This document shows positions 38,250-40,968 of a stretch of DNA of 64,000 nt, one piece after another. The stretch covers positions 2,490,375 to 2,554,374 of the forward strand of contig CAWJLW010000006.1 of NCBI GenBank assembly GCA_963843795.1, written 5' to 3'. A program made the position numbers and the translations under genes. A model generated the notes under the pieces. It did no database searches. It saw only the letters and a list, made by a program, of their open reading frames with translations, and had not been told where the DNA came from. Within the stretch, counting starts at the first letter, position 1. Each line of letters starts with the position of its first letter. The DNA comes from an uncultured bacterium. Lineage in GTDB: Bacteria > Armatimonadota > Abditibacteriia > Abditibacteriales > Abditibacteriaceae.

Positions 38250-40968
38250 TTAATCCAAAGCCTGACGACGCAGTTCTTGCAAACGCACAATCGCTTCGAG
38301 TGGCGTTAAATTGTCCACGTCTAACGCTTTCAAGGCTTCCAAAACTGGATGTGGCGCGCTGTTTTCGGGCGGATTATCGAACAGGCCGCCCGCAAGTACT
38401 TGCGGAGCTTTGGGCACGTCGGAAACCTCGACACTTTGGCCGCGCAAGCGCTCGCGCGAGAAAATATCCAACAGTTCCTGCGCGCGGCGAATGGTGCTTT
38501 GGGGCAAACCGGCCAAGCGCGCGACTTGAATTCCGAAGCTGCGGTCGGTGCCGCCGCGAATGATGCGGCGCAGGAAAATGATGTGCTCGCCGTCTTCTTT
38601 GACCGCGATGCGGAAATTTTTCACGCGCGGCAAGCGTTCTTCCAGTTCGTTCAAATGATGATAATGCGTGGCGAACAGAGTTTTCGGCCCGCTTTCGTGC
38701 AGATGCTCGGCGACCGCCCACGCAATCGAAAGCCCGTCGTAAGTGCTCGTGCCGCGCCCGACTTCGTCCAGAATCACCAGGCTGCGCGGCGTGGCGTTGT
38801 TGAGAATATTGGCGGTTTCGTTCATCTCGACGGTGAAAGTACTTTGGCCGGTCGCGAGGTCGTCCTGCGCGCCGACGCGCGTAAAAATGCGGTCGAGCAA
38901 GTCCGATTTTCGCACTGCGCGCGGGAACAAAACTGCCGATTTGCGCCAACAAAGCAATCAGCGCGACCTGACGTAAAAAGGTGCTTTTGCCGCTGGCGTT
39001 GGGGCCGGTGATGATGAGAACCTGCTGGCTTTCGCTGTCCAGAACGCAATCGTTGGGCACAAAGGGCGCTTCGCTCATCGCCTCGACGACCGGATGGCGG
39101 CCGCCGCGAATTTCCAAAATATCGTCTTCCGAAATCTCCGGTCGCACGAAATCGCGCTTGGCCGCGACTTCGGCCAAACCCGCATAAACATCGAGATGCG
39201 CCAGGGCGCGCGCTGTTGTCAAAAGCGGCGCGGCTTGCCCTGCGACTTGATCGCGCACGCTTTCAAACAAGCGCTTTTCGATGTCGTTGATGCGGTCTTG
39301 CGCGCCCAGAATCAAAGCTTCTTTTTCTTTGAGTTCCGGCGTCACGAAGCGCTCGGCGTTGGCTGTAGTTTGCTTGCGCGTGTAATCGTCAGGCGCGTTG
39401 GCGATGTTGACTTTAGTGATTTCGATGTAATAACCGAACACGTTATTGAAGCCAACTTTCAAGTTTTTGATGCCGGTTCGCGCGCGTTCGGTTTCTTCCA
39501 GTTGCGCGATCCAAACCTTGCCTTCGCGCGCCGCGATGCGCGTGGTGTCGAGTTCGTCGTTGTATTCGTCACGAATCAAGCCGCCTTCGTTAAGCGTGGC
39601 GGGCGGTTCATCAGCGAGCGCATTTTCCAAAAGTTTCAGCAAATCGGGCGCGGGGTCGAGATGTTCTCGCACATTCACCAGAGCTTTGCCGGCGCAAATT
39701 TCTAGCGCGGCACGCATCGCGGGCAAGGTTTGCAAGGCGGTTCGCAGGCTGACCAAATCACGCGCGTTGGCTTGTCCGGCGACCGCGCGCGTGACCAAGC
39801 GTTCGATGTCGGAAATGGAGCGCAGCAAATCGCGCACATCACGACGCAAAAGCAAGTTATCGAGCATTTCTGCGACTGCGTCCTGTCGACTGAGAATGCG
39901 GTCGCGCTGCAACAGCGGCTGCAAAATCCATTTGCGCAAAAGTCGTGCACCCGCGCCCGTGCGCGTTTCATCCAAAAGTGCTAAAAGCGTGTTTTTACTT
40001 GAACCGTCGCGCAACGATTGCACCAATTCTAAGTTGCGCCGCGTCGCGTTATCGAGCATCATCCAGCCTTCGGTGGATAAAAGACTGATGCGGCGGATGT
40101 GGCCCAGCGCGCCCAAATGTGTGTCTTTGAGATAATCGAGGGCTAGAGCGGCGGCGTCTTGTGCGACGGGCAGATTTTCTAAACCGAAACCGCGCAAGCT
40201 GGAGACGCGAAAATGGTTTTGCACTTTTTGCGTCGAAGAATCGAAGCCGCTGGAATCGAAGGCGGTGACGTGCAAGTTGTTGTCGCTGAGAAACTCTAAA
40301 AACCCGGCGCACTCGCGCAAATTCTGCGGCACAAGTACTTCGGAAGGCTCAAAGCGCTGCAATTCCTCGCGCAATTTGAACCAGCGCGCGTGGCCTTCGG
40401 CAGCGTCTGGCGTTTGGTCTTGCGCGCCGGGCGCAATCGGTTCTTCGTCCGGCGCACACGCGGCTTGCACGCCAACTTTGCCCTCGGCTTCAATTTGTCC
40501 GGCCAAGAATTCGCCGGTCGAAACATCAACTAAGGCCAAACCGAAATGCTGCAAATCTTTATCGGCGCATAAAGCCGCTAGAAAATTGTTGCCTTTGGCC
40601 GCTCCGACACTTTGCAAAAACGAATCTTCGATGACCGTTCCCGGCGACAAAACGCGCGTGATTTCGCGCTTGACCAAACCGCGCGCATATTTTGGGTCTT
40701 CAACTTGGTCGCAGATGGCGCAGCGATAACCTTTGGCTAGTAACTGCGCTATATAGCGCTCGGCGGCGTGATAAGGCACGCCACACATCGGAATCGCGTC
40801 GGCGTCTTTAGAGCGCGAGGTGAGCGTAATTTCCAGTTCGCGCGCGACGGTGCGGGCGTCTTCGTGAAACAGTTCGTAAAAATCGCCCATGCGAAAAAAC
40901 AGCAGCGCATCGGGATATTGATCTTTGACGCGCTGCCACTGCCGCATCATCGGCGTCGGTGTTGCCAT
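38250..40968 (-). pseudogene. mutS: DNA mismatch repair protein MutS, interrupted by an apparent +1 frameshift near 38898
   Basis: N-terminal 680 aa in one frame (ORF 38374..40968) up to ..[13 protein letters not shown]. The C-terminal 235 aa ([23 protein letters not shown]..) continues in another frame (ORF 38250..38957). Deleting one nucleotide restores KIGLLDRIF, which is collinear with E. coli MutS. Confidence 0.8.

Follow-up and report, generated by a model that had tools for sequence, protein, structure and literature searches.

A one-nucleotide frameshift inside the ATPase domain of mutS in an Abditibacteriaceae contig

Organization of the mutS locus

The window, i.e. the whole 64-kb stretch of DNA that was analysed, comes from an uncultured member of the Abditibacteriaceae; the Abditibacteriota are, to our knowledge, a phylum with almost no cultured members. 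A mutS (MutS1) locus is located on its minus strand and extends from an ATG at position 40968 to a stop codon at position 38250 (38250..40968). The length of 2719 nt equals 3 x 906 + 1, and mutS as written is not one uninterrupted frame: the MutS homology changes frame at 38898-38902, where a +1 frameshift had been placed by the original prediction.

The N-terminal part of the gene is encoded in frame A (38903..40968, minus strand; residues 1 to about 689) and comprises the complete domains MutS_I to MutS_IV as well as positions 1-42 of the 188 positions of MutS_V. It includes the Walker A motif or P-loop GPNASGKST (residues 655-663; 38980..39006, minus strand), which aligns with GPNMGGKST of E. 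coli and lies upstream of the break. The open reading frame in frame A (38374..40968, minus strand, 864 aa) follows MutS up to ..SAKIG(L) and then, according to the ORF listing, runs through 174 nonsense codons to its first stop (38374..38898, minus strand), the corresponding 174 residues being without similarity to MutS. In the frame B ORF (38250..38957, minus strand, 235 aa) the MutS homology resumes at (L)LDRIFTRVG and reaches the natural C-terminus. The C-terminal part in this frame (38250..38897, minus strand) provides residues 691-905 and the stop codon, i.e. the rest of MutS_V and the C-terminal region. By a motif scan the signature TGQSTF (38835-38852), the Walker B stretch with DEVGRGT (38748-38780) and the His-loop FATHYH (38658-38675) were located on the minus strand downstream of the break.

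The surplus nucleotide is one of the five bases A-C-T-T-G (38898..38902, minus strand) between the two parts; in the deposited sequence, ACTTG is flanked on the minus strand by ..AAAATCGG and CTCGACC... Read in frame A, the minus strand at the junction is GGC AGT TTT GTT CCC GCG CGC AGT GCG AAA ATC GGA CTT GCT CGA CCG, and read in frame B it is TCG GAC TTG CTC GAC CGC ATT TTT ACG CGC GTC GGC. The codon-usage score in the coding-score map of mutS changes frame exactly at 38903. The Pfam match to MutS_V is shared between the frames, frame A accounting for positions 1-42 (E 2.2e-16) and frame B for positions 38-185 (E 1e-58), and two such complementary pieces are far above chance. Deletion of any one base of plus-strand 38898-38902 restores GLLD and gives the identical 905-aa protein with ..KIGLLDRIF... 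The c in plus-strand gagCaag (38898), which had been singled out as the surplus base, is among these valid deletions but is slightly less parsimonious than the A at 38902 or the C at 38901. As had been noted before, the site (GGACTTG) is not a homopolymer, the longest run being TT.

The extra base falls within the Gly689-Leu690 codons of ATPase domain V. The break had been thought to divide the ATPase region from the C-terminal dimerisation region; it is actually situated within the ATPase domain, at about position 42 of 188 of MutS_V, with Walker A on one side and the signature and Walker B motifs on the other. The product as written is predicted to keep domains I-IV, namely the mismatch-binding, connector, core and clamp domains, and the P-loop, followed by 174 out-of-frame residues. 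Of the ATPase motifs it would miss the ABC signature, Walker B and the His-loop, and the C-terminal region would be absent as well. Judged from established MutS structures, a product without these motifs and this region could neither hydrolyse ATP nor dimerise, and the gene as written would thus encode a non-functional MutS, as originally proposed.

The restored 905-aa protein shows the Pfam order MutS_I (5-115), MutS_II (198-292), MutS_III (308-599), MutS_IV (468-559) and MutS_V (651-834). It was scored with the NCBIfam equivalog models NF003810 (1032 bits, cut-off 480) and TIGR01070 (999 bits, cut-off 642), and the MutS2 model TIGR01069 gave 191 bits, which is under its cut-off of 400. The motifs Walker A, ABC signature, Walker B and His-loop are all there and aligned to E. 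coli, but they are spread over two reading frames. With domains I-V present and both equivalog cut-offs passed, the restored sequence identifies the gene as MutS1 (DNA mismatch repair protein MutS), in agreement with the original annotation. No other ORF with a MutS domain was seen when the remaining ORFs of the 64-kb window were analysed with Pfam.

Comparison with relatives

In a protein search with 120 matches listed, the best database matches of mutS were MutS proteins of Abditibacteriaceae/Abditibacteriota. Three intact close relatives (L001, L082 and L083), all from one ENA metagenome assembly, encode proteins of 900-905 aa with 94-96% amino acid identity and about 87-88% nucleotide identity, and share with the window the gene order mutS / (SUKH) / GNAT / NAGPA-like. 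The frame is uninterrupted in these three relatives and in all full-length matches among the 120 listed. A natural split in homologues had been raised as a possible alternative, and contig-end cuts aside none was found at the break position among the 120 matches listed.

Over the 2.7 kb of mutS, the window and L001, the closest intact relative, differ by two 3-nt indels and the single extra base, and by no other indel. The site reads GGT TTG CTG GAT, GGT TTG TTG GAT and GGC TTG CTG GAT in the relatives and GG-A-C-TTG CTC GAC in the window; the glycine codon and its neighbour are GGT TTG in L001 and L082 and GGC TTG in L083. Since the relatives read GGY TTG, the A (38902) or the C (38901), at the wobble position of the glycine codon, is most parsimonious as the extra base. 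A duplicated T in CTG or the G at 38898 may be the extra base instead, though less probably.

The part encoded in frame A is 94-96% identical at the amino acid level to the intact relatives. All 215 codons downstream of the break are free of stops, carry the full codon-usage signal and encode a sequence with 94-97% amino acid identity to the relatives at a dS of about 0.6-0.7; over the 145 codons that follow the break, the protein is 98-100% identical to the relatives at a dS of 0.5-0.65. The dN/dS ratios between the window and the three relatives were 0.045-0.058 upstream and 0.057-0.082 downstream of the break, and cannot be told apart from those that the intact relatives show among themselves (0.046-0.079). 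The lesion thus stands alone in a gene that, compared with the three relatives, is otherwise under full purifying selection. Because dN/dS is equally low on either side of the break, the lesion must be very recent or artefactual, that is, very young or not biological.

When the last 262 aa of the restored protein served as query in a protein search, no mutS fragment of the same species was retrieved, the best match being 87% identical, and an exact DNA pattern across the site, with a gap of 3-6 nt allowed, gave 0 matches among metagenome contigs. A scan of genome contigs with the restored protein found at least 80 relatives, the best identity among the matches listed being 70%.

Some further observations were made in other bacteria. 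In a more distant bacterium, L084 (ENA ERZ25039515 contig_33211, 4.56 Mb), mutS is located at 4227-6837 and is split by one extra base into pieces of 597 aa (domains I-IV) and 278 aa (domain V), the break lying between EIRGG and RHPVVE in a GGGCCG context. Compared over the C-terminal 262 aa, its MutS and the restored MutS of the window are 63% identical, and an intact mutS2 is found 2.7 kb downstream of the split gene. Two proteins from JGI metagenomes (P0186 and P0203) carry an intein (LAGLIDADG_3 and Intein_splicing) in the Walker A P-loop of MutS domain V, about 30 residues upstream of the residue that is broken in the window. Just upstream of mutS, the window harbours a gene for an NAD-dependent epimerase/dehydratase of the GDP_Man_Dehyd/Epimerase family (41106-42059, minus strand, 317 aa), which we take to be UDP-glucuronate-decarboxylase-like. 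The epimerase genes of L082 (662-2587) and L083 (314-2242) encode 641-642 aa, an additional stretch of about 325 aa being inserted right in front of the catalytic YDEAK. This insertion starts with CYDR.., ends with ..VWCGN immediately before CYDEAK and has a faint LAGLIDADG match, and its sequence suggests an intein whose presence varies between close relatives.

Sequence context in the window

The coding-score map showed no same-strand frame switch in the 52 other ORFs of the window (55.4 kb), and every Pfam domain match in these ORFs was essentially end to end. The coding sequence contains 205 homopolymer runs of 5-7 nt, and none of them is out of frame. The consensus is thus good locally, which weakens the hypothesis of an error but does not remove it. 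Full-length domain matches were found for an intact mutY-like gene (HhH-GPD and NUDIX_4; 55591-56877, minus strand), an intact ruvC (62688-63347, minus strand) and an intact gene for a Ham1/RdgB-type NTP pyrophosphatase (26065-26688, plus strand).

A second frameshift had been suspected at 27719-27776 on the minus strand and was rejected: the downstream gene encodes a complete N6_N4 DNA methylase (profile positions 2-220 of 221), and the 57-nt overlap at this position thus represents two separate overlapping genes. The methylase gene (26991-27776, minus strand) and the overlapping upstream ORF of 159 aa (27719-28198), which has no Pfam match, may be a restriction-modification pair. In the ORF of 404-408 aa at 54257-55483 (minus strand) the TatC domain covers residues 180-393 only and is preceded by an N-terminal extension of about 175 aa. 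An ORF for a PMT_2-type glycosyltransferase (6551-7999, minus strand, 482 codons) has a codon-usage score of 23, far under its neighbours of similar length, and may be horizontally acquired.

In the -1 frame of the other genes, 174 or more open codons occur at only 0.16% of positions, with a median of 20. The frame of the window's 174-codon tail is closed in the relatives by a stop at codon offset 44. The long open tail is thus a coincidence, and its interpretation as a second coding layer was rejected on these grounds. Since the wrong frame is open for 174 codons, the broken ORF has 864 aa compared with 905 aa of the native protein. At this near-native length, ORF-based annotation still labels it as MutS with MutS_V, as is the case for the public protein record P0007, and the defect easily escapes notice. 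P0007 is identical to the 864-aa ORF of the window and is encoded on a contig of 3,623,414 bp in NCBI and ENA, so the frameshift stands in the public record.

Interpretation of the frameshift

Expression of a functional MutS despite the interruption, either by a +1 ribosomal shift at CUU-G that yields the full-length protein or by reassembly of two separately made pieces, was judged very unlikely. Formally, the complete protein would result from a +1 shift at GGA CUU G, and near-cognate starts (TTG, GTG) of the frame B ORF are present at most 18 codons upstream of the junction. However, given the uninterrupted frame in the three closest relatives and in the full-length homologues, the interrupted arrangement is not conserved. 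At the site there is no in-frame stop, rare codon or slippery sequence, a Shine-Dalgarno-like element is absent upstream (over 1 kb separates the site from the nearest AGGAGG), and the downstream RNA folds no better than shuffled sequences (z -1.33; equalled by 22 of 200 shuffles). With such folding and a continuous frame in the closest relatives, programmed +1 frameshifting is not supported, and it was rejected for want of a stall codon, a stimulator and conservation among relatives. As to a split protein, we know of no viable architecture in which MutS is cut within a single nucleotide-binding domain, Walker A being separated from Walker B, and in which the first piece ends in a nonsense tail of 174 residues. 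Nor is there a repeat tract at the site: a scan of 201 nt revealed no tandem tract at 38898-38902 and short two-copy matches only. Phase variation via slippage is thereby excluded, and slippage and quasi-palindrome templating were likewise rejected, as no repeat or meaningful inverted repeat is present at the site. An ancient loss of mutS in this lineage, with the gene now decaying as an old pseudogene, is exceedingly improbable; the frameshift alone speaks for such a loss, and the stop-free 215 downstream codons, the dN/dS of 0.06-0.08 and the high amino acid identity at a substantial dS rule it out. A mutator allele and an assembly or sequencing error, the two possibilities considered from the outset, are the only serious alternatives; recoding and a split gene are nearly excluded, an old pseudogene is refuted, and everything besides these two readings, taken together, is highly improbable.

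The extra base is best regarded as a consensus or assembly error, with a probability of roughly 0.55. Counted in favour of this reading are the limitation of the lesion to a single base, the lack of decay, the change of the codon-usage frame right at 38903, the location of the surplus base at or beside a glycine wobble position that differs among the relatives, and the megabase-scale contig as source. Such an error would probably have arisen in the consensus of a long-read, metagenome-derived assembly, and the organism itself would then carry an intact MutS. For instance, a strain polymorphism (GGA versus GGC) at the glycine wobble position, which is four-fold degenerate, may have been recorded as two bases, 'AC'; this position is also variable among the relatives (T/T/C). 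Related megabase contigs from the same NCBI and ENA sources bear names in the style of long-read metagenome assemblers, namely ctg355664_31x_c (3.48 Mb) and contig_33211 (4.56 Mb), and in the latter mutS is also frameshifted by one base, at a different place. Frameshifts by which genes are pseudogenised reportedly arise from long-read error rates (PMC12007338). The gene affected in the window belongs to the strongly conserved core. Roughly 1% of natural isolates carry mutS-null alleles, of which frameshifts outside of runs make up only a fraction. Given this frequency, an artefact would be at least as probable as a null allele even if indel errors occurred at no more than about 0.1-1 per 100 kb. 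Indel errors of long reads cluster in homopolymers, and two points stand against a consensus error: the rest of the window is very accurate and the site is no homopolymer. The context GGACTTG is not an error-prone one for an assembly indel, and it is accompanied by no second frameshift in the window.

The same two points favour a genuine and very recent loss of function, i.e. a real +1 insertion that inactivated MutS, with the mismatch-repair-deficient mutator being dominant in the sampled population; this explanation is a serious possibility, although it was rated below even odds. The deposited sequence would encode an ATPase-dead MutS, the 64 kb without a further frameshift and the 205 correct homopolymer runs indicate a consensus of high accuracy, and the non-homopolymer context is untypical of long-read indel errors. 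A young allele would likewise show no decay. Mutator phenotypes are known from natural isolates (PMC5793043), and hypermutation driven by disruption of mutS is described for a marine Vibrio (PMC5296598). On the other hand, no mutator history is visible in the window: no gene is broken among the 52 other ORFs and the mutY, ruvC and Ham1/RdgB homologues are intact, although 64 kb would reveal nothing of a young mutator and the mutation spectrum is not polarisable at 12% divergence. The dN/dS of the window is no higher than among the relatives, which is a weak argument, since a young mutator leaves no visible trace in this measure. Spontaneous indels, like sequencing errors, are rarer outside of runs, and the prior for a dominant environmental lineage with a mutS frameshift is low. 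Since no sequence of the same species was found, the weighing of error against genuine allele rests on priors.

Both leading readings are ordinary, well-known situations and involve no new biology. If the lesion is genuine, the lineage would have an elevated mutation rate, which affects the reading of its genome, its strain diversity and any pseudogenes; the sampled Abditibacteriaceae population would then be a natural MutS-null hypermutator caught immediately after the knockout, a reading that was likewise rated below even odds. If the preferred reading of an artefact applies, caution is advised in the ORF-based annotation of frameshifted genes. Either outcome concerns the curation of one record.

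Comparison with known systems

The restored protein resembles the MutS proteins of E. coli (PDB 1E3M/7AI6) and Thermus aquaticus (1EWQ) in the ordered arrangement of its domains I-V. Its alignment to E. coli MutS, from residue 553 onward, crosses the junction ungapped, which bears out the predicted collinearity of KIGLLDRIF after removal of one base. Both proteins share a conserved Walker A motif, STF signature, Walker B (DE) and THY motif, and the junction I-G-L-L-D-R-I of the restored protein corresponds to I647-G648-P649-I650-D651-R652-I653 of E. coli. Unlike these bacterial MutS proteins, the ORF of the window is broken by one surplus base at the equivalent of E. coli G648-I650.

With programmed +1 frameshifting of the prfB/RF2 type (CUU UGA C), the site in the window has in common the direction of the shift (+1) and a CUU codon; it differs in being without an in-frame stop codon, an upstream Shine-Dalgarno stimulator and conservation in the closest relatives. 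Natural mutS-null mutator alleles occur in isolates of E. coli, Salmonella and Pseudomonas aeruginosa. The window shares with these a lesion that is predicted to abolish MutS function in an otherwise normal genome, but here the lesion is a plain 1-nt insertion. It is not a repeat-tract change that is able to revert, in contrast to switchable repeat-tract alleles. In Vibrio splendidus, a mobile element in mutS is described (PMC5296598), whereas the lesion in the window is not a mobile element. Gene-fragmenting indel errors in long-read assemblies (e.g. PMC12007338) resemble the case presented here in that a conserved and otherwise undamaged gene on a megabase-scale contig is split by an indel of one base; the lesion in the window differs from them by its position outside of a homopolymer and by being the sole event among 53 genes.
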